Source of the DNA: Bacteroidota bacterium
GTDB lineage: Bacteria; Bacteroidota; Ignavibacteria; UBA10030; SZUA-254
Direction of reading: 5' to 3'
Assembly (NCBI GenBank): GCA_035495255.1
Contig: DATJGD010000074.1
Span: forward strand, 318 to 64,317
Length of the DNA stretch: 64,000 bases
Shown here piece after piece: positions 3,985 through 34,321 of the stretch. The notes under the pieces are model-generated. The model was not told the DNA's origin. It made no database searches and saw only the letters and a list, made by a program, of their open reading frames with translations. The stretch's first letter is position 1, and every line of letters begins with the position of its first letter. Position numbers and translations under genes: made by a program.

Positions 3985-4635
3985 ATGATGAAAGTAATCC
4001 TCACAGGCGCAACAGGTATGGTCGGCGAGGGCGTTCTATTCGAATGCCTGGATAATGCCGCCGTTTCCGAAGTGCTGATGGTTAATCGGAGGCATTACAA
4101 TATTTCACATCCGAAACTGAAGGAACTTTTGGTCACTAACTTTCTTCTGATCGAAAAATATTCTGAGCAATTACGCGGATACGACGCGTGCTTCTACTGT
4201 GCCGGTGTAAGCTCCGTAGGAATGAATGAAGCAGATTATTCCAGAATTACCTACGACACAACCCTGGCATTCGCAAACGCGGTTTTGCAGCAAAATCCAA
4301 CCATGGTGTTCATATTTGTCACCGGAGCCAGAACTGACAGTTCGGAAAAAGGAAAGGTTATGTGGGCGCGGGTAAAAGGCAGGACCGAAAACGCGTTGAT
4401 GCAGCTCGCCTTTAAGCATGTGTTCACTTTCCGGCCGGCAATAATGAAGGCGACGAAGGGACAGGTTAACGTAAAGACAATCTACAGGATTTTGGGTCCG
4501 ATCATAGCACCCTTCTATCCCGCAAAGACTCTTACACTGAAGCAGGTGGCACAGGCAATGATTCATGCCGTGGTGAAAGGCTATCCCAAACCAATTTTAG
4601 AAGTGGACGATATCTTAAAATTATCTCAGCAATAG
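3985..4635 (+). CDS. NAD(P)H-binding Rossmann-fold protein (atypical SDR/epimerase-like)
   Basis: MKVILTGATGMVGEGVL glycine-rich dinucleotide-binding N-terminus; 216 aa. Confidence 0.6.
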   Translation: MMKVILTGATGMVGEGVLFECLDNAAVSEVLMVNRRHYNISHPKLKELLVTNFLLIEKYSEQLRGYDACFYCAGVSSVGMNEADYSRITYDTTLAFANAVLQQNPTMVFIFVTGARTDSSEKGKVMWARVKGRTENALMQLAFKHVFTFRPAIMKATKGQVNVKTIYRILGPIIAPFYPAKTLTLKQVAQAMIHAVVKGYPKPILEVDDILKLSQQ

Positions 4636-4665
4636 TTACCGGAATAAACCTTTATTGACGAGGCC

Positions 4666-5145
4666 TTGATGGACGACTATCTTGAAAACGCAACGCTTCA
4701 CTCCACCACCAACTCCGGCACAATCCGTCGTATCGCGTTCGCCAACCTTCCCAGGATGGCAAAGCTTGAAATTATGTGGGAGTGGTTCTGGAGGTCAATG
4801 ATCGTTACGGTCGTAGCCCTTATTGTGGCGATGATAGTCGGATTTTTCTTCGGCGTCGGGATTGGCCTCTTCCTCGTCGCCCTGAAGATTCCCACTGAAC
4901 CGTTTAAGCTCCTCTTTCAGGTGCTGGGATTCGCGCTCGGGCTTGCCACCGGATTTCTCAGCCTTAATTTTCTTATAGCGTGGCTCACGCGGTCTCAGCT
5001 CGGCGCATACGAGCTGTGGCTTGTCCAGCCTGCCGGTTTCGAAATCCCTGCATCCGAAGTATCCAACAAACTTACTTCTCCGGATACTTCGCAACGCACT
5101 CCCTCGTCAATCTCTCATAATTCTCCGGATCCAGCTTCCTGGTGA
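4666..5145 (+). CDS. hypothetical membrane protein
   Basis: three predicted TM helices (MIVTVVALIVAMIVGFFFGVGIGLFLVAL..); no recognisable motifs. Confidence 0.4.
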   Translation: MMDDYLENATLHSTTNSGTIRRIAFANLPRMAKLEIMWEWFWRSMIVTVVALIVAMIVGFFFGVGIGLFLVALKIPTEPFKLLFQVLGFALGLATGFLSLNFLIAWLTRSQLGAYELWLVQPAGFEIPASEVSNKLTSPDTSQRTPSSISHNSPDPASW

Positions 5146-28343: not shown

Positions 28344-28372
28344 TTGACAAGTCAATGGGAATTTATTATAAT
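28344..28372 (+). promoter_or_regulatory. lexA promoter, perfect sigma70 consensus TTGACA-N17-TATAAT
   Basis: TTGACA 28344-28349, 17-nt spacer, TATAAT 28367-28372. Confidence 0.6.
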
Positions 28373-28373
28373 A

Positions 28374-28391
28374 GGTATACGTTTGTATACC
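28374..28391 (+). promoter_or_regulatory. candidate LexA operator: perfect inverted repeat GGTATAC-GTTT-GTATACC
   Basis: IR begins 2 nt after the -10 hexamer, covering the predicted +1 of lexA, 18 nt before the lexA ATG. Confidence 0.45.
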
Positions 28392-28408: not shown

Positions 28409-29047
28409 ATGGCTGAAGAATTAACAAATAGACAGCGCAAAATACTCGAGTTTATTCAGGCATTTATGCAGAAAAACGGCTTCCCGCCGTCAGTACGCGA
28501 AATCGGGGCGAAAATGAATATTGCCTCTCCCCGGGGAGTTGCCAAGCATCTCGAGGCCTTGGAGCGAAAAGGGCACATCCGGCGAAGCGCCGGCATGCAG
28601 CGCGGTCTTAAAGTTAATAACGTCGCCATCGGCAAGGAAACCCCCATTCTCGGCAGGATCGCAGCAGGCAAGCCCCTCACCGCCGTGGAAAACCTGGAAG
28701 GCTCGATGATGCTCGATTCCGCATTTTCGAAGCTCGGCCCGACATTCCTCCTCAAAGTCAAAGGAGAAAGCATGAAAGACGCGGGCATTTTCGACGGTGA
28801 CCTCGTCCTTGTGCGCCAGCAGCAGACAGCGGAGCAGGGAGACATCGTGGCAGCCCTTCTCAATGAAGAAGCGACTGTAAAGTATTTCAAGAAAAAGAAA
28901 GAAACGATCTCTCTCGAGCCGGCAAACGAAGCATTCCGGCCGATCGTCGTGCAGCCGCATGACCAGTTCGCCATCGCCGGCAAAGTCATCGCCGCGATCC
29001 GGGTGCTGGATACTACAGTTGTCAATGCGATGTATGGAAAGAATTGA
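28409..29047 (+). CDS. lexA: LexA repressor (S24 peptidase, SOS regulator)
   Basis: N-terminal winged HTH (LTNRQRKILEFI..PSVREIG), Ala-Gly cleavage site (IAAGKPL), catalytic Ser (VKGESMKDAGI) and Lys (TVKYFKKK). Confidence 0.92.
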   Translation: MAEELTNRQRKILEFIQAFMQKNGFPPSVREIGAKMNIASPRGVAKHLEALERKGHIRRSAGMQRGLKVNNVAIGKETPILGRIAAGKPLTAVENLEGSMMLDSAFSKLGPTFLLKVKGESMKDAGIFDGDLVLVRQQQTAEQGDIVAALLNEEATVKYFKKKKETISLEPANEAFRPIVVQPHDQFAIAGKVIAAIRVLDTTVVNAMYGKN

Positions 29048-29117: not shown

Positions 29118-30038
29118 ATGAGCAAGATCTATATTGGCATGGGCGGGTGGGAGCTGCATCCCTTCAATCAGTATTTTTATCCTCCGAAACCTAAAAAGGG
29201 TTTCCGGAAGCTGGAGTTCTACAGCCAGTTCTTCGACAGCATCGAAGTCAACGTGTCGTTTTATAATACGGCGCTGACGCAGGTGCATTCCCGCAGGTGG
29301 CTGCAGGATGTTTCGGCAAATAAAGAATTCATGTTTACGGTAAAGCTGTTCCAGGGGTTCACGCACACTTTCGACGCGACGACACAGGACGTTCAAGGCG
29401 TGCATAAGCTCCTCGAGCCTCTTGCCGCCGAAGGAAAGCTGGGCGGGCTTCTCATGCAGTTCCCCTACTCGTTCACGAATCTCGGAGAACGCAGGAGATA
29501 TCTGGCGCAGCTGAGCAAGGTATTTCATCAGTACAGGCTGTTCGTCGAACTGCGGCACAACTCGTGGAACAGTCCGGCAACGTACAACTTCCTCCAGGAG
29601 CACAAACTCCATCTGGTCAACGTCGATCTCCCCCAGGTTAACCGGAACATGCCACTTACCGCCCTCTCATGGAACGGCGCGGCATACTTCCGCATGATGG
29701 GAAGAAATGTTGATACCTGGAACAATCCCTGGAAGCTGGAGGAAGATAACGAACACGTGGTCGGCAACCGCTACAACTACTCTTATTCCGAGCGCGAGCT
29801 GGAATTACTGCTCTATTATATCAAGAAGGTAAGTTCTGCGAACACGAATGTCTATGTGGTATTTCACAACGACCCTGAGGCGAATTCGCTGATCAATGGG
29901 TTTCAGCTGCGGCATCTCGCACGGCATAACCACCGGGTGCTGGTACCACAGAACCTTATCCGCAAGTATCCTGATCTGAAACATATCAGCTCAGAGGTGA
30001 ATGTCAACCACAAGCTGTTCGCCGAGGTGGAGGCTTAG
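29118..30038 (+). CDS. DUF72 (UPF0759/YecE-like) family protein
   Basis: YIGMGGWELHPFNQYFYPP..KLEFYSQFFDSIEVNVSFYNTALTQVHSRRW matches the DUF72 N-terminal signature (IGTSGW..WY..LEYYA..F..VEVN.TFY). Confidence 0.75.
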   Translation: MSKIYIGMGGWELHPFNQYFYPPKPKKGFRKLEFYSQFFDSIEVNVSFYNTALTQVHSRRWLQDVSANKEFMFTVKLFQGFTHTFDATTQDVQGVHKLLEPLAAEGKLGGLLMQFPYSFTNLGERRRYLAQLSKVFHQYRLFVELRHNSWNSPATYNFLQEHKLHLVNVDLPQVNRNMPLTALSWNGAAYFRMMGRNVDTWNNPWKLEEDNEHVVGNRYNYSYSERELELLLYYIKKVSSANTNVYVVFHNDPEANSLINGFQLRHLARHNHRVLVPQNLIRKYPDLKHISSEVNVNHKLFAEVEA

Positions 30039-30766
30039 TCCTCCTCCTCGATCGGCGTGAGGCATTCGGGAACATCGTTCTTCGAATTGCTGACGAGGCG
30101 TGAAACGAGGTAGGCTTTCATCTTTTTTGCAGGATACGGCGCGAGGAGTTTTTTGAGTTTATCAGTTTCCTTGTAATCCCGGTCGAGCCATTGCTCGAAG
30201 TTTTTTTCCTCGAGGATGACAGGCATTCGGTTATGGATTGGAGCCATCAACGTATTGGGTTCCGTCGTGATGATGGAAAAGGTGGGAAATTCTTCTTCCG
30301 TTTTCGGATTTTTCCAGACGGAAAAGAGTCCTGCGAACATGAACGGTTGTTCGTCGGCCATGCGGATACAGACAGGCTGTTTTTCGACGATCTCTTTCGT
30401 CTTCCCTTTCACTTCCTTGGTGGTTGTGAGTTTCTTCCATTCGTAGAACGCTTCGGCGGGAACGAGGCAGCGGCTTCCTTTGAAATACACTTTCCAGAGG
30501 TTGCTCGTATCAAGAGATTCCGCCTTTGCGTTGAACGCGCTGAACCCGGGCTTGTTCTCTTTCGACCAGTGCGGAATAAGCCACCACTGCATCGCCTGGA
30601 TGGCATCTTCGCCGTTGCGCTGGGCGACAACCGGCATCTTCTGCATCGGCGAAGCGTTGTACCGGGGCAGCATCTCAAAGACCTGGCCCATCTGCCGCAT
30701 TTTTTTCATCTGCTCGAACGTCAAAAATACCTTTTTGGCGTTCACGAGCGCGTAACGTCCACACAT
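30035..30766 (-). CDS. SOS response-associated peptidase (SRAP/YedK/HMCES family, abasic-site DNA-protein crosslinking)
   Basis: protein begins MCGRYAL (catalytic Cys2 after Met removal), 244 aa, conserved ..WK..T.. and ..NMP..L.. motifs; start ATG at 30766. Confidence 0.85.
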   Translation of the reverse strand: MCGRYALVNAKKVFLTFEQMKKMRQMGQVFEMLPRYNASPMQKMPVVAQRNGEDAIQAMQWWLIPHWSKENKPGFSAFNAKAESLDTSNLWKVYFKGSRCLVPAEAFYEWKKLTTTKEVKGKTKEIVEKQPVCIRMADEQPFMFAGLFSVWKNPKTEEEFPTFSIITTEPNTLMAPIHNRMPVILEEKNFEQWLDRDYKETDKLKKLLAPYPAKKMKAYLVSRLVSNSKNDVPECLTPIEEED

Positions 30767-30809
30767 ATGTCTATAATATACGCATTGGCAGCCTAAGAAT
30801 CGATAGTGT

Positions 30810-31433
30810 ATGATACCCATCCCGTTAACATCGCACACGCTGACGCGATCGCTGCTGCGGCCCGCCGGCAACATGTCGCTCGTCTACGGAGACTCGCTCG
30901 TATTCCGTCTCTCCATGATCACTGCGGCGGAATTGCTGGCGAGCGGCGGAACCATCGCCGTCGTCGACGGCTGCAACAGGTTCGACCTTCACGCAATTAC
31001 AAAGTACGCCCGCGAGCGGAAACTCGATCCGCATCCCCTGCTCGACCGCGTCTTCGTGTCCCGCGGATTTACCTGCTACCAGATGGAAGCGGCCGTAACG
31101 ACCAAGCTTCCCGAGTTTCTTTTCCGGCATAACGGACAGACCGCGATGATCTTCGGCCTTCTCGATACGTTCTACGACGAACAGGTGTCCTTGCAGGAAG
31201 TTCAGCACATCCTTCAACGCGTCCTCCGTGCCCTCGACGAAATGAAACAGAAAAATATTTCCATCCTCCTCGCCTGCACGGAGTGGAACGTGCATCCGAA
31301 GGAGCGCAACATGCTCTTCGACCACCTGAAAAACGGCATGGACCGCATCTACCGGCTCGTGAGGGACGAAGCAGAGCAGCCGAAACTGTTTCTTGAAGAA
31401 CAATATCCGGTACAGCTGCAGAAGAGCGCCTAA
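30810..31433 (+). CDS. ImuA/SulA-like RecA-fold protein (no Walker A)
   Basis: 207 aa; ELLASGGTIAVVDGCNRFDLHAI...AMIFGLLDTFYDE...ISILLAC resembles the inactive RecA/KaiC-like core of ImuA/SulA proteins; divergent from SRAP and directly upstream of a polymerase gene. Confidence 0.4.
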   Translation: MIPIPLTSHTLTRSLLRPAGNMSLVYGDSLVFRLSMITAAELLASGGTIAVVDGCNRFDLHAITKYARERKLDPHPLLDRVFVSRGFTCYQMEAAVTTKLPEFLFRHNGQTAMIFGLLDTFYDEQVSLQEVQHILQRVLRALDEMKQKNISILLACTEWNVHPKERNMLFDHLKNGMDRIYRLVRDEAEQPKLFLEEQYPVQLQKSA

Positions 31434-31714
31434 TGGGCAGAACCGTACCGACATTTACGAATATCATCGATGCCGAGCTGGCGTCATGGGGAAAGTACCG
31501 CCGGGGATTGCGAAAGAAGGACCAGGAGACGTTCGACGAGATGTTCCGCGCCGCGAAACAGCATCTCGCCGAAAACTTTTACGCGATGCGCACGATCCCG
31601 TTCGAAAGCATCATCGTCTCGCTCGTCCTGGAACAGCACAAGCGCATCAAACAACTTGAACAACGGGTGGCGGAATTAAAAAATGACGCAAACGATCAAC
31701 GGATGGCTCTTTGA
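31433..31714 (+). CDS. small hypothetical protein (93 aa) translationally coupled between the ImuA-like and polymerase genes
   Basis: TAATG overlap with the upstream gene, 32-nt overlap with the polymerase start; C-terminal coiled-coil-like KQLEQRVAELKNDANDQ. Confidence 0.35.
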   Translation: MGRTVPTFTNIIDAELASWGKYRRGLRKKDQETFDEMFRAAKQHLAENFYAMRTIPFESIIVSLVLEQHKRIKQLEQRVAELKNDANDQRMAL

Positions 31715-34004
31715 CATCTATCCCGCCCCCTCGGGGGTCACGCTCTGGTTCATCGACACGAACGGAAATAAACATTGCTGTTTCCGCACGTTCACCCCTT
31801 CATTTTTTCTCCATGTCGATGCCAACGACGCGCGCCGGGCCGAAGTCCTCGGGCAGCGGTGCCCTGTACCGGTAACATTCCAGAAGACGAGCCGGCAGGA
31901 GCTCTTCTCCGGCGAATGGCGGGACGTCGTGCAGGTTTTCGTGCACAACCCGATGCGGTTCCGGCAGGCGGTGATCTATTATGAACGTTTCTTTCCGCAT
32001 TTCGCGCTCTACAATTCAGACATCCGTGTCGAGCAGTTGTTTCTCTACGAAACGCAGCTCTTCCCTCTGGGCTACGGCGATTACCTCGTCGATGAAAAAG
32101 GGGAACTGACCGGCTGGACCTTGCGCGACTCCCGGGACGCGGTGGAGTACACCCTCCCGCCCCTCTCGATGATGATGATCCGGAACGCGAACGATTTTGT
32201 CCCTCCGAAATACCAGAGATTTCTCCAGCTTGAGGTGATGTACGACGGCATGACCTACGCGCTCGAGCAGGAGACTCCGGTCGAGATGCTCGAAGCGCTC
32301 AACGGGCACATCTACAGATACGACCCCGACATTATCCTCACGGAGTACGGAGATCCCGTGCTCATGCCGAAAATCACCCAGATGGCGCACCGTTATAACG
32401 TCCCACTTTTATTTAACAGGGACCTGCGCGCCACCTATAAAGTTTCCCGCGAATCGAGCTTCTTCCAGTACGGGAAGGTCGTCCACAAGGACGGCGCGTT
32501 CGAGCTGCGGGGGCGGTGGCACGTCGACGCAAATAACTCATTTACTATTATCGAATCAGACCTGGAAGGTTTATATGAACTCATTCGTGTCACGCAGCTT
32601 TGTCCGCAGCACCAGGCCCGCGCCTCGATCGGCACGGGTCTCTCTTCCCTTCAGCTTTCCTGGGCATACCGCAACAAGGTCCTCATTCCCTCGAAGAAAC
32701 GGGAACCGGAAGAATTCAAGCCTGCCTCCCTCTTATTACTTGCCGACCGTGGCGGTCTCATTTATATGCCGCCCCTCGGATATCACGAAGAGGTCGCCGA
32801 GCTCGATTTTGCTTCGATGTACCCTTCCATTATGGTGACGCAGAACGTCTCGCCGGAAACGGTGAACTGCCGGTGCTGCCATAACAGTGCGGTGCCGGAG
32901 CTCGGGTACACGATCTGCGAGCGCCGGGAAGGGATCATTCCGGCGACATTACGCTCGATCGTCGAAAAGCGGGCATACTATAAGCAGCGGAAAAAAGAAT
33001 TCAAGGGGAAGAACCCGTTGCTGTATAACATGTACGACCGCCGGCAGAATTCATTGAAGTGGATGCTCGTCAGCTGTTTCGGATACCTGGGTTACAAGAA
33101 CGCGCGGTTCGGAAGGATCGAGGCGCATGAATCTGTCAACGCCTTCTCGCGCGACGCCATCCTCACCGCAAAAGAAATCGCCGAAGAGCGCGGCTACGAG
33201 CTTCTCCACGCGATCATCGATTGCATGTGGCTGAAAAAAGAAGGGGCGACGGAACAGGACTACCTGGACCTCTGCCGGGAAATTGCCGAACGTGTAAACA
33301 TCCAGATTTCTCTCGAAGGCATCTACGATTGGATTCTTTTTCCGTCGTCGAAGATGGACGCGGGAATGCCCACCGGCACGCGGTACGTGGGATGGTACCA
33401 TCACGGGGACATCAAAATACGGGGAATAGAATCGCGCCGCCGTGATACGCCGAAGTTCATCAAGAACATGCAGGCTGCGATGCTCGACCATATGTCGGCA
33501 GCCCGCCGCACCTCCGAACTTGAAGCGATCGTCCCCGAGCTGCTGGATGTTGCCCGCGAGCATGTCATGGTCCTTCGGAGCGGCAAAGCAAATCCGATGG
33601 AGCTTGTCTTGCGGCGGCATATCACGAAGGAAGCAGAAGAATACTCGAACAACAGCATCAGCGCCACAGTCACGCAGATGCTCGAAGAGTGCGGCGTTCA
33701 CCTCGCCGCCGGCGAGCTCATCGAGTTTATTATCATCGACGCGACCGGAAAGAAGCAGCCGGATAAGGCCAAACCGCTTTCCCTCTATGCGTTTGAGGAC
33801 GGGTACGATATCGAGAAGTATACCGAACTGGCGCTCAAAGCGGTCGAAACGCTCCTCAGCCCGTTCGGTTATTCGTACGAGCGGCTGCAGGAGGAGTTCG
33901 ACTGCACGCCGAAGAAAAAGCGCAGAATACAACTCAAAAAGGTGGAACCTTCTGAGTTAACTCTCTTTCACGAGCTGCAGAACACGGGGACGGAAAGAGC
34001 CTAA
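31683..34004 (+). CDS. polB: family B DNA polymerase, E. coli Pol II-like, predicted exonuclease-deficient
   Basis: N-terminus LWFIDTNG parallels Pol II SFWLATDNG; motif A DFASMYPSIM, motif B KWMLVSCFGYLGYKNARFG, KxY-like TRYVGWY, motif C replaced by LLHAIIDCMWL; Exo I position reads LSMMMIRNAND instead of (S)IDIETT, Exo III YELIR instead of YxxxD. Confidence 0.85.
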   Translation: MTQTINGWLFDIYPAPSGVTLWFIDTNGNKHCCFRTFTPSFFLHVDANDARRAEVLGQRCPVPVTFQKTSRQELFSGEWRDVVQVFVHNPMRFRQAVIYYERFFPHFALYNSDIRVEQLFLYETQLFPLGYGDYLVDEKGELTGWTLRDSRDAVEYTLPPLSMMMIRNANDFVPPKYQRFLQLEVMYDGMTYALEQETPVEMLEALNGHIYRYDPDIILTEYGDPVLMPKITQMAHRYNVPLLFNRDLRATYKVSRESSFFQYGKVVHKDGAFELRGRWHVDANNSFTIIESDLEGLYELIRVTQLCPQHQARASIGTGLSSLQLSWAYRNKVLIPSKKREPEEFKPASLLLLADRGGLIYMPPLGYHEEVAELDFASMYPSIMVTQNVSPETVNCRCCHNSAVPELGYTICERREGIIPATLRSIVEKRAYYKQRKKEFKGKNPLLYNMYDRRQNSLKWMLVSCFGYLGYKNARFGRIEAHESVNAFSRDAILTAKEIAEERGYELLHAIIDCMWLKKEGATEQDYLDLCREIAERVNIQISLEGIYDWILFPSSKMDAGMPTGTRYVGWYHHGDIKIRGIESRRRDTPKFIKNMQAAMLDHMSAARRTSELEAIVPELLDVAREHVMVLRSGKANPMELVLRRHITKEAEEYSNNSISATVTQMLEECGVHLAAGELIEFIIIDATGKKQPDKAKPLSLYAFEDGYDIEKYTELALKAVETLLSPFGYSYERLQEEFDCTPKKKRRIQLKKVEPSELTLFHELQNTGTERA

Positions 34005-34099: not shown

Positions 34100-34321
34100 T
34101 TAGTTCTGGAAGATCTTCATCGCCTCATCGATCGCGTCACGAAACTGATCGATCTGGGTGTCGAAAACCATGATGCTCGAACGGGTGAACTTCGTTTCAC
34201 CCTCCTTCGGCGGCTTGCTCTCCGAAATCGTCATATACTTCGACTTGTTTTTAGCCTCTTTGACGTCGAAAAAATACGTCCTGCCTCCCGCCTTGAGCGA
34301 GCGTGAAAATAATGCGTCCAT
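34100..34321 (-). CDS. DUF3276 (PUR-alpha-like nucleic-acid-binding) family protein, short form
   Basis: GGRTYFFDVKEAKNKSKYMTISESK matches the RTYFFDV..YL.ITESK core of DUF3276. Confidence 0.5.
   Translation of the reverse strand: MDALFSRSLKAGGRTYFFDVKEAKNKSKYMTISESKPPKEGETKFTRSSIMVFDTQIDQFRDAIDEAMKIFQN

Follow-up and report, generated by a model that had tools for sequence, protein, structure and literature searches.

A PolB2-type DNA polymerase with a decayed exonuclease domain in an iRadA-PPB2-polB2 gene block of an Ignavibacteria-type bacterium

The 64,000-nucleotide stretch of DNA analysed here (hereafter the window) comes from a Bacteroidota bacterium (GTDB lineage Bacteria; Bacteroidota; Ignavibacteria; UBA10030; SZUA-254) and corresponds to positions 318 to 64,317 of the forward strand of contig DATJGD010000074.1 in NCBI GenBank assembly GCA_035495255.1. 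At 31683..34004 on the plus strand it carries polB2, a gene for a 773-residue B-family DNA polymerase (PolB) with a decayed exonuclease domain, which is matched by Pfam DNA_pol_B and NCBIfam models and is assigned here to the PolB2/G2 group. We conclude that its product very probably acts as catalytic subunit in a bacterial mutasome of the PolB2 (G2) group, that is, a polymerase of archaeal origin that is co-translated from an iRadA-PPB2-polB2 operon and that, by analogy with the Sulfolobus polymerase Dpo2, would serve as an extender in damage tolerance. The protein is assigned to PolB2 because its HxxxD form of motif C, its D(K/R) motif and its decayed exonuclease motifs match the published signature of the family.

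Views of PolB2 have changed considerably: the family was held to be “inactivated” in 2008-2014, was recognised as an active translesion extender in 2020-2022, and had its bacterial operon and neighbouring genes analysed in 2020, 2025 and 2026. The bacterial subclade G2 is nested within archaeal B2, has an unconserved Exo I motif, a missing Exo III motif and a motif C with one conserved Asp, and is traced to horizontal transfer out of archaea (Kazlauskas et al., 2020; PMC7544198). G2/PolB2 is one of the three major bacterial PolB groups in a 2026 survey (PMC12926913), and a polymerase of this kind is therefore not unusual for a bacterial PolB, contrary to a first-pass annotation of the window. 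No polymerase of Sulfolobus other than Dpo2 is damage-inducible, and targeted mutagenesis depends on Dpo2 (PMC7390963). When purified, the enzyme shows robust polymerisation and is devoid of exonuclease activity (Feng et al., PMC8764526), and in primer extension it is as active as the replicase (PMC8764526; PMC11791011). It is accurate on undamaged DNA and poor at insertion opposite lesions, and it is efficient in extending primer termini that are mismatched or lie opposite a lesion (PMC8764526).

In the Pfam scan, DNA_pol_B is the sole domain of the 773-residue protein (residues 325-721, E = 4.5e-35) and no exonuclease domain is among the matches. The best NCBIfam models are NF004416 (391 bits), whose match spans almost the whole length of the polymerase, and NF004418 (370 bits), both named “type B DNA-directed DNA polymerase” and belonging to the PRK05761 group; other archaeal PolB models reach at most 160 bits. 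Models of Pol II score 25-56 bits, with NF004421 at 56 bits against a cutoff of 570. Searched with phmmer against Protein Data Bank (PDB) sequences, the polymerase is matched best by archaeal PolBs of Pyrococcus abyssi, KOD, 9°N and Tgo (E about 1e-43, residues 312-736), and Pol II is not among the 60 best matches. Foldseek likewise pairs the AlphaFold2 model with archaeal PolBs, a comparison that is usable at the level of fold only, the input having been a shallow alignment of 32 sequences at 66-79% identity. The open reading frame reported at 31683-34004 is real, as are the peptides quoted from it (LSMMMIRNAND at residues 161-171, YELIR at 298-302 and LLHAIIDCMWL at 507-517), but the “Pol II-like” label and the alignment to E. 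coli Pol II behind it give way to probable membership of the archaeal-derived PolB2/G2 lineage (PMC7544198; PMC11791011).

Relatives of the polymerase are numerous: the word index gives 5024 matches at E <= 1e-5, and searching all 50%-identity representatives exhaustively with HMMER yields 784 clusters at E <= 1e-30. The 120 best word-index relatives, at 66-79% identity, come from Ignavibacteria/Bacteroidota metagenome bins and are mostly annotated as “DNA polymerase-2”, “DNA polymerase II” or hypothetical. A PolB representative from Candidatus Bathyarchaeia is 33-34% identical to the query and collinear with it over 742 aligned columns (query residues 1-728), and the two proteins have HxxxD, ADRGG and FK(T/P)A in common (HGMVD, ADRGG and FKTA in the archaeal protein). 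The NCBIfam ranking, with NF004416 and NF004418 on top, is repeated for distant relatives including this one. Conservation is given below as counts among 116 proteins, the query plus 115 full-length representatives at 31-67% identity.

Motifs A, B and C of the polymerase domain were placed by phmmer alignment to Pyrococcus/Thermococcus PolB. The catalytic Asp of motif A (ELDFASMYPS) is D375 (32805..32807, plus strand), present in 116/116, and Y380 of the same motif is found in 112. Motif B, KWMLVSCFGYLGY, contributes K459 (33057..33059, plus strand), a Lys in 115 of the 116. Motif C has the PolB2 form HxxxD, H509-A-I-I-D513 (33207..33221, plus strand), and is aligned to the Y-I-D-T-D of archaeal PolB; HAIIDC stands opposite Y-I-D-T-D-G, so that, relative to DTD, the protein has Ile511 at the first Asp position and keeps D513 at the second. 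H509 is conserved in 108/116 and D513 in all, and position 511 is mostly I, L, Y, N or V, the five commonest residues including no Asp. The reported retention of a single aspartate in motif C is accordingly correct. It is also what the literature describes for the family: the YxDTD that is invariant elsewhere among PolBs “is mutated into HxxxD in PolB2” (PMC8764526), and the S. islandicus protein has the motif 401-IID-403 (Timinskas et al., 2025; PMC11791011). By analogy with other B-family enzymes the surviving D513 is taken to be the metal-ligand Asp, the essential one, because in B-family structures the second Asp of motif C ligates metal and the first faces away from the active centre (PMC8764526). 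The “unusual active-site chemistry” that had been proposed is not needed, since D513 corresponds to the usual metal ligand and Dpo2, which has the same I-I-D, is active (PMC8764526; PMC11791011). The KxY motif is altered in the polymerase, where GTRY is aligned with KKKY.

Upstream of motif A, PolB2 proteins have an invariant D(K/R) motif that lies in a loop (PMC11791011; also PMC8764526). Its counterpart here is D355-R356 (32745..32750, plus strand), with Asp in 116/116 and K or R at the second position in 106 (K in 57, R in 49). Some of the relatives are much longer than the query: about 15 PolB2 representatives (P0243, P0288, P0295, P0308, P0312, P0329 and others) measure 1210-1306 residues, and their match to the query is interrupted at residue 466, within motif B between VSC and FG. 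Inteins in the active-site region of the polymerase are the likely cause of these breaks.

The exonuclease domain is still recognisable, and its catalytic residues are gone. The Exo I-equivalent LSMMMIRNAND (32163..32195, plus strand, residues 161-171) has no D-x-E, and no conserved acidic residue was found at 158-172 among the 116 relatives. In the Exo II-equivalent TEYGDPVLMPKI (32340..32375, plus strand), placed by phmmer alignment to residues 209-258 of P. abyssi PolB, the position of the catalytic Asp is L227, which is L, I or V in 93/116; in this second, weaker phmmer stretch TEYGDPVLMP lies opposite the Exo II sequence TYNGDNF(D)FP. The Exo III-equivalent YELIR (32574..32588, plus strand, residues 298-302) has R302 in place of the Asp, and this Arg is found in 114/116. 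The Exo I and Exo III correspondences come from our own sequence alignment, rather than a structural superposition, to what we take to be the archaeal PolB motifs. The absence of proofreading carboxylates noted at first reading is thus borne out. Intact exonuclease motifs displaced by insertions or deletions were looked for, as was a DTD or conserved DxD elsewhere in the polymerase, and neither was found in this set; the only conserved D-x-D is the structural DPD at residues 214-216, which is general among PolBs. The catalytic residues of the polymerase are under strict purifying selection, and those of the exonuclease have been lost.

Two partner genes directly precede polB2. The first encodes iRadA (30810..31433, plus strand), a 207-residue protein of the RadA/Rad51 fold that has neither the N-terminal domain nor the Walker A and B residues, as judged by profile comparison, AlphaFold2 and Foldseek. 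It has no match in the Pfam scan, but a profile of its homologs matches only RadA/Rad51 chains in the PDB (best E = 1.9e-5), in an alignment that begins after the Walker A region and has Gly at the position of the Walker B Asp. Its AlphaFold2 model is confident, with a predicted local distance difference test score (pLDDT) of 88 and a predicted template modelling score (pTM) of 0.86, and the top Foldseek matches are the ATPase cores of DMC1, RadA and Rad51 (E = 1e-10, TM about 0.7). GxxxxGK[ST] was looked for in iRadA and is absent; where a P-loop would be expected, strand 1 (residues 22-27) passes through two residues into a helix that starts at residue 30. The protein is an ATPase-dead RadA that lacks the N-terminal domain, i.e., iRadA, because it combines the RadA/DMC1 fold with a missing P-loop and a Walker B Gly. 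A shorter start at 30873 was rejected in favour of 30810 on finding that the N-terminal extension is kept in homologs.

The second partner gene (31433..31714, plus strand) encodes PPB2, a small, presumably helical protein of 93 residues that starts MGRTVPTFT. It has no match in Pfam or NCBIfam, and the MGRT N-terminal arm is the feature that defines PPB2 (PMC11791011); an MGRT protein of 81-113 residues lies directly upstream of polB2 in 58 related loci. The iRadA stop codon and the PPB2 start codon overlap by 1 nucleotide (TAATG), and the 3' end of PPB2 overlaps the start of polB2 by 32 nucleotides. These overlapping gene ends indicate a single, presumably translationally coupled operon. In many iRadA homologs the open reading frame continues past the PPB2 start in the other frame and ends in “NGTNRTDLYEHHR...” (the equivalent in the window being 31393-31659, plus strand). 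Such endings are the conserved DNA of the PPB2 N-terminus (MGRTVPTFTNII) read out of frame, where the window has the 1-nucleotide TAATG overlap instead, and they may mislead gene callers as to the length of iRadA and produce apparent iRadA-PPB2 fusions.

From these parts we can outline how the complex would most likely work. D375 of motif A and D513, the single Asp of motif C, would hold the catalytic metals. Published AlphaFold-Multimer and AlphaFold3 models assemble PolB2, iRadA and PPB2 into a heteropentamer of 1:1:3 (PMC11791011), and by extension PolB2 would here bind one ATPase-dead iRadA together with a PPB2 trimer whose MGRT arm would reach toward the active site, giving a heteropentamer of the same 1:1:3 stoichiometry. 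A candidate iRadA contact, suggested by the published complexes (PMC11791011), is the FxxA-like F345-K-P-A348 (32715..32726, plus strand), which resembles the Rad51 oligomerisation motif and lies in the loop before D(K/R). Its family consensus is F-K-(T/S)-A (F in 65/116, K in 99/116, A in 76/116), and the loop has pLDDT < 50 in the monomer model. The complex may be recruited to the beta clamp through E758-L-T-L-F762 (33954..33968, plus strand), a candidate form of the canonical QLxLF in the disordered C-terminal tail (pLDDT < 50). Peptides of (Q/E)xxLF-like or xLxEF form (e.g., ELPLF, QIPLF) occur within the final 25 residues of 77 of 120 close homologs. Clamp motifs are known from either PolB2 or iRadA, with iRadA the commoner location (PMC11791011). 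The sequence PKLFLE in iRadA was considered as a clamp motif and rejected, as it forms a beta-strand inside the folded domain of the AlphaFold2 model, and in the Ignavibacteria-type clade it is thus the polymerase, not iRadA, that seems to bear the clamp peptide. After DNA damage, such a complex would act as a proofreading-free extender of primer ends opposite lesions or mismatches, and the outcome would be damage tolerance at the cost of targeted mutations. The label “error-prone” given at first reading needs qualifying in the light of Dpo2, whose speciality is the extension of mismatched and lesion-opposed primer ends and which is accurate on undamaged DNA (PMC8764526).

The genes around the operon are also those expected from the literature. 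Divergent from iRadA lies a gene for a SRAP protein (YedK-like, abasic-site shielding; 30035..30766, minus strand; Pfam SRAP E = 1.3e-63, with the match beginning at residue 37 of the longest open reading frame), and a start at MCGRY would give it an N-terminal Cys. It is followed, moving away from the operon, by a DUF72 gene (29118..30038, plus strand; Pfam DUF72 E = 1.9e-44), DUF72 being a TIM barrel related to UV-damage endonuclease (PMC11791011), and by lexA (28409..29047, plus strand), which encodes a canonical SOS repressor (TIGR00498 at 219 bits against a cutoff of 111; LexA_DNA_bind and Peptidase_S24). Genes lexA, DUF72 and SRAP are reported as enriched around bacterial polB2 (PMC11791011), and the window has all three. 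On the other flank, downstream of polB2, are groEL/groES. A 73-residue open reading frame just downstream of polB2 (34100-34321, minus strand) matches DUF3276 and, weakly, the PurA ssDNA/RNA-binding repeat, in a match that spans only about half of the 131-position profile.

Synteny was assessed in the 56 related loci that have 1.5 kb or more of sequence upstream, counting neighbours within 6 kb; they come from one contig scan and represent close Ignavibacteria/Bacteroidota relatives only, with no archaeal loci. Both partner genes are present in 52 of the 56, and 51 have the order iRadA-PPB2-PolB2, the only gene order reported for bacteria (PMC11791011). A LexA-like gene lies within 6 kb in 28 loci, a DUF72 gene in 17 and a SRAP gene in 15. 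In five relatives (L001, L015, L059, L060 and L079) iRadA and PPB2 do not directly precede polB2; L015 has PPB2 at a distance of 1.4 kb, and L079 has a fragment of iRadA about 6 kb downstream. In another five (L047, L061, L075, L053 and L065) the PolB2 match is truncated or split, which suggests insertions or frameshifts.

Regulation is best considered gene by gene. The lexA gene, 1.8 kb upstream of the operon, has a perfect sigma-70 consensus promoter of its own, TTGACA-17-TATAAT (28344..28391, plus strand, palindrome included), followed directly by GGTATAC-GTTT-GTATACC at 28374-28391, a perfect 7+4+7 palindrome that is the sole perfect copy in the window. Its form and position suggest that it is probably the LexA operator of the source organism, and it differs from the LexA boxes of E. 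coli, Gram-positive bacteria and Bacteroidetes. As an SOS box before iRadA the palindrome was rejected, there being no second good copy. The Bacteroidetes LexA-like motifs GGA-N5-TCC and CTAA-N5-TTAG (PMC8565304) belong to other regulators and were set aside, and GACA-N4/5-TGTC, which occurs in the window in coding regions only and probably by chance, was rejected as an operator. A sigma-70-like match at 30785-30814 was discarded as an iRadA promoter, as it overlaps the iRadA start codon. The start codons of SRAP and iRadA lie on opposite strands only 43 bp apart (30767-30809), so that their promoters must lie inside the neighbouring coding sequences or in a very compact shared control region; no conserved motif was seen in this intergenic region across the SRAP-type loci.

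Other members of the family are arranged differently. In 29 of 58 related loci (L004, L007, L012, L017, L019, L024 and others) the iRadA promoter has one or, often, two GACA-N4/5-TGTC palindromes (core ACGACAAAAATGTCGT), which overlap a TTGACA promoter about 100-200 nucleotides upstream of iRadA (about 4800-4930 in L012) and have a background frequency of 0.03 per 290 nucleotides. A divergent gene for a repressor with an XRE helix-turn-helix and an S24 peptidase adjoins the palindromes (4138-4790, minus strand, in L012), and L031 has GAAC-AAAT-GTTC, a GAAC-N4-GTTC box, at the same place upstream of iRadA. The arrangement suggests that in the palindrome-bearing genomes a self-cleaving repressor may be dedicated to the PolB2 operon, and damage control by such a repressor is plausible for the family.

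Several points weigh against the assignment of an active, damage-induced mutasome to the window. The searchable literature yielded no study, biochemical or genetic, of a bacterial PolB2, and the activity and role proposed here are carried over from proteins that share about 30-35% identity, the relatedness to Dpo2 itself being drawn from family models, motifs quoted in papers and the protein of an archaeal metagenome-assembled genome. The AlphaFold2 model of the polymerase is mediocre (pLDDT 62, pTM 0.49) and gives no residue-level assignment of the exonuclease site. The candidate clamp motif ELTLF starts with Glu, the canonical residue being Gln. The 43 bp between SRAP and iRadA contain no copy of the lexA palindrome and no other evident operator, and SOS control of this particular operon is the weakest link of the explanation.

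Of the other explanations, the one with most in its favour is that the protein is a catalytically dead polymerase homolog that serves the mutasome as a scaffold or adaptor in the manner of ImuB, the pre-2020 view of PolB2 and one of the two outcomes offered by the first-pass annotation. Earlier predictions did make PolB2 inactive (cited in PMC7544198 and PMC8764526), motif C lacks the first Asp of DTD and has His for the Tyr of YxDTD, KxY is altered (GTRY against KKKY), and a RecA-family protein and a small partner are linked to the gene as in an ImuA-ImuB cassette. However, the metal-ligand Asps D375 and D513 are present in 116/116 and the motif B Lys K459 in 115/116, in relatives down to 31% identity, Sulfolobus Dpo2 is a robust polymerase with the same I-I-D (PMC8764526), and there is no second polymerase gene within the operon to scaffold. 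We consider a dead scaffold very unlikely; the other outcome then offered, an active specialised polymerase without proofreading, fits the evidence.

The two remaining explanations seem to us more improbable still. A diverged E. coli Pol II (polB) ortholog in which proofreading was lost secondarily would be a bacterial B-family polymerase too, but it is contradicted both by the family-model scores and by the partner genes, and we give it very little credence. The same low standing applies, on the evidence of gene context and base composition, to a polymerase of a mobile element or prophage (e.g., a replicative or protein-primed PolB) in place of a chromosomal repair enzyme. B-family polymerases are common in phages and plasmids, the PolB2 family entered bacteria by horizontal transfer (PMC7544198; PMC11791011), and the adjacent partner genes are lacking in 5/56 loci; against this, housekeeping or repair genes flank the operon on both sides (lexA, DUF72 and SRAP upstream, groEL/groES downstream), the G+C content stays level at 0.52-0.56, and dozens of Ignavibacteria-type genomes have the same syntenic block, some of them on multi-megabase contigs. 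The catalytic subunit of a PolB2 mutasome is the reading that we retain.

Compared with known systems, the locus is closest to the bacterial PolB2/G2 loci already described (PMC7544198; PMC11791011; PMC12926913), with which it shares HxxxD, D(K/R) and the decayed exonuclease motifs, an iRadA without ATPase motifs, an MGRT PPB2, the gene order, the lexA/SRAP/DUF72 neighbours and, at the C-terminus of one large subunit out of two, a beta-clamp-like peptide. Nothing of substance differs, although the clamp-like peptide is here on PolB2 (ELTLF) and not on iRadA, and no LexA-type operator is visible directly upstream of iRadA. Dpo2 of Sulfolobus (Saccharolobus) islandicus/solfataricus (PMC7390963; PMC8764526), to which the protein is likened through published descriptions, has the same I-I-D motif C, no exonuclease motifs and the same partner genes. 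A link to a DNA-damage regulator is likewise common to both, namely Orc1-2 in archaea and LexA here. The candidate clamp peptide of the window protein is of the beta-clamp type rather than the PCNA type. No PolB2 known is smaller than Dpo2, whose N-terminal half is more eroded (PMC8764526), whereas the 773-residue protein described here keeps a recognisable, though dead, exonuclease-domain scaffold.

More distant likenesses concern mode of action. E. coli Pol II, too, is a bacterial polymerase of the B family that is linked to SOS, works mainly in extension and has a C-terminal QLxLF clamp motif, but it belongs to another PolB lineage, its DEDDy exonuclease is active, its YxDTD is canonical, and it consists of a single subunit. 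Eukaryotic Pol zeta (Rev3-Rev7-Pol31-Pol32) and the bacterial Pol V and ImuA-ImuB-DnaE2 are likewise multisubunit, damage-induced translesion machines; Pol zeta resembles PolB2 further in being an extender of the B family whose exonuclease domain is dead, and Pol V and ImuA'BC also use a RecA-family partner. The likeness to these machines lies in the working mode and not in family membership, as their accessory subunits are unrelated, Pol V is a Y-family and DnaE2 a C-family polymerase.

The window may nonetheless depart from the described mutasomes in its wiring. The operon stands head-to-head with SRAP, has no recognisable LexA/S24 operator and would have its clamp peptide on the polymerase, and it might be co-regulated with SRAP, for example for restart past SRAP-shielded abasic sites or SRAP-DNA crosslinks, independently of classical SOS control; we regard this as a long shot.

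The locus adds no new family, as both the motif pattern, which is the PolB2 signature, and the gene block, which matches the published description, are already known. It offers a clean and complete example of lexA-DUF72-SRAP-iRadA-PPB2-PolB2 from a mesophilic bacterial lineage, and is a reminder that annotation pipelines label PolB2 genes as “DNA polymerase II” or “hypothetical protein”. Being complete, the locus would be suitable material for a first biochemical study of a PolB2 mutasome from bacteria.

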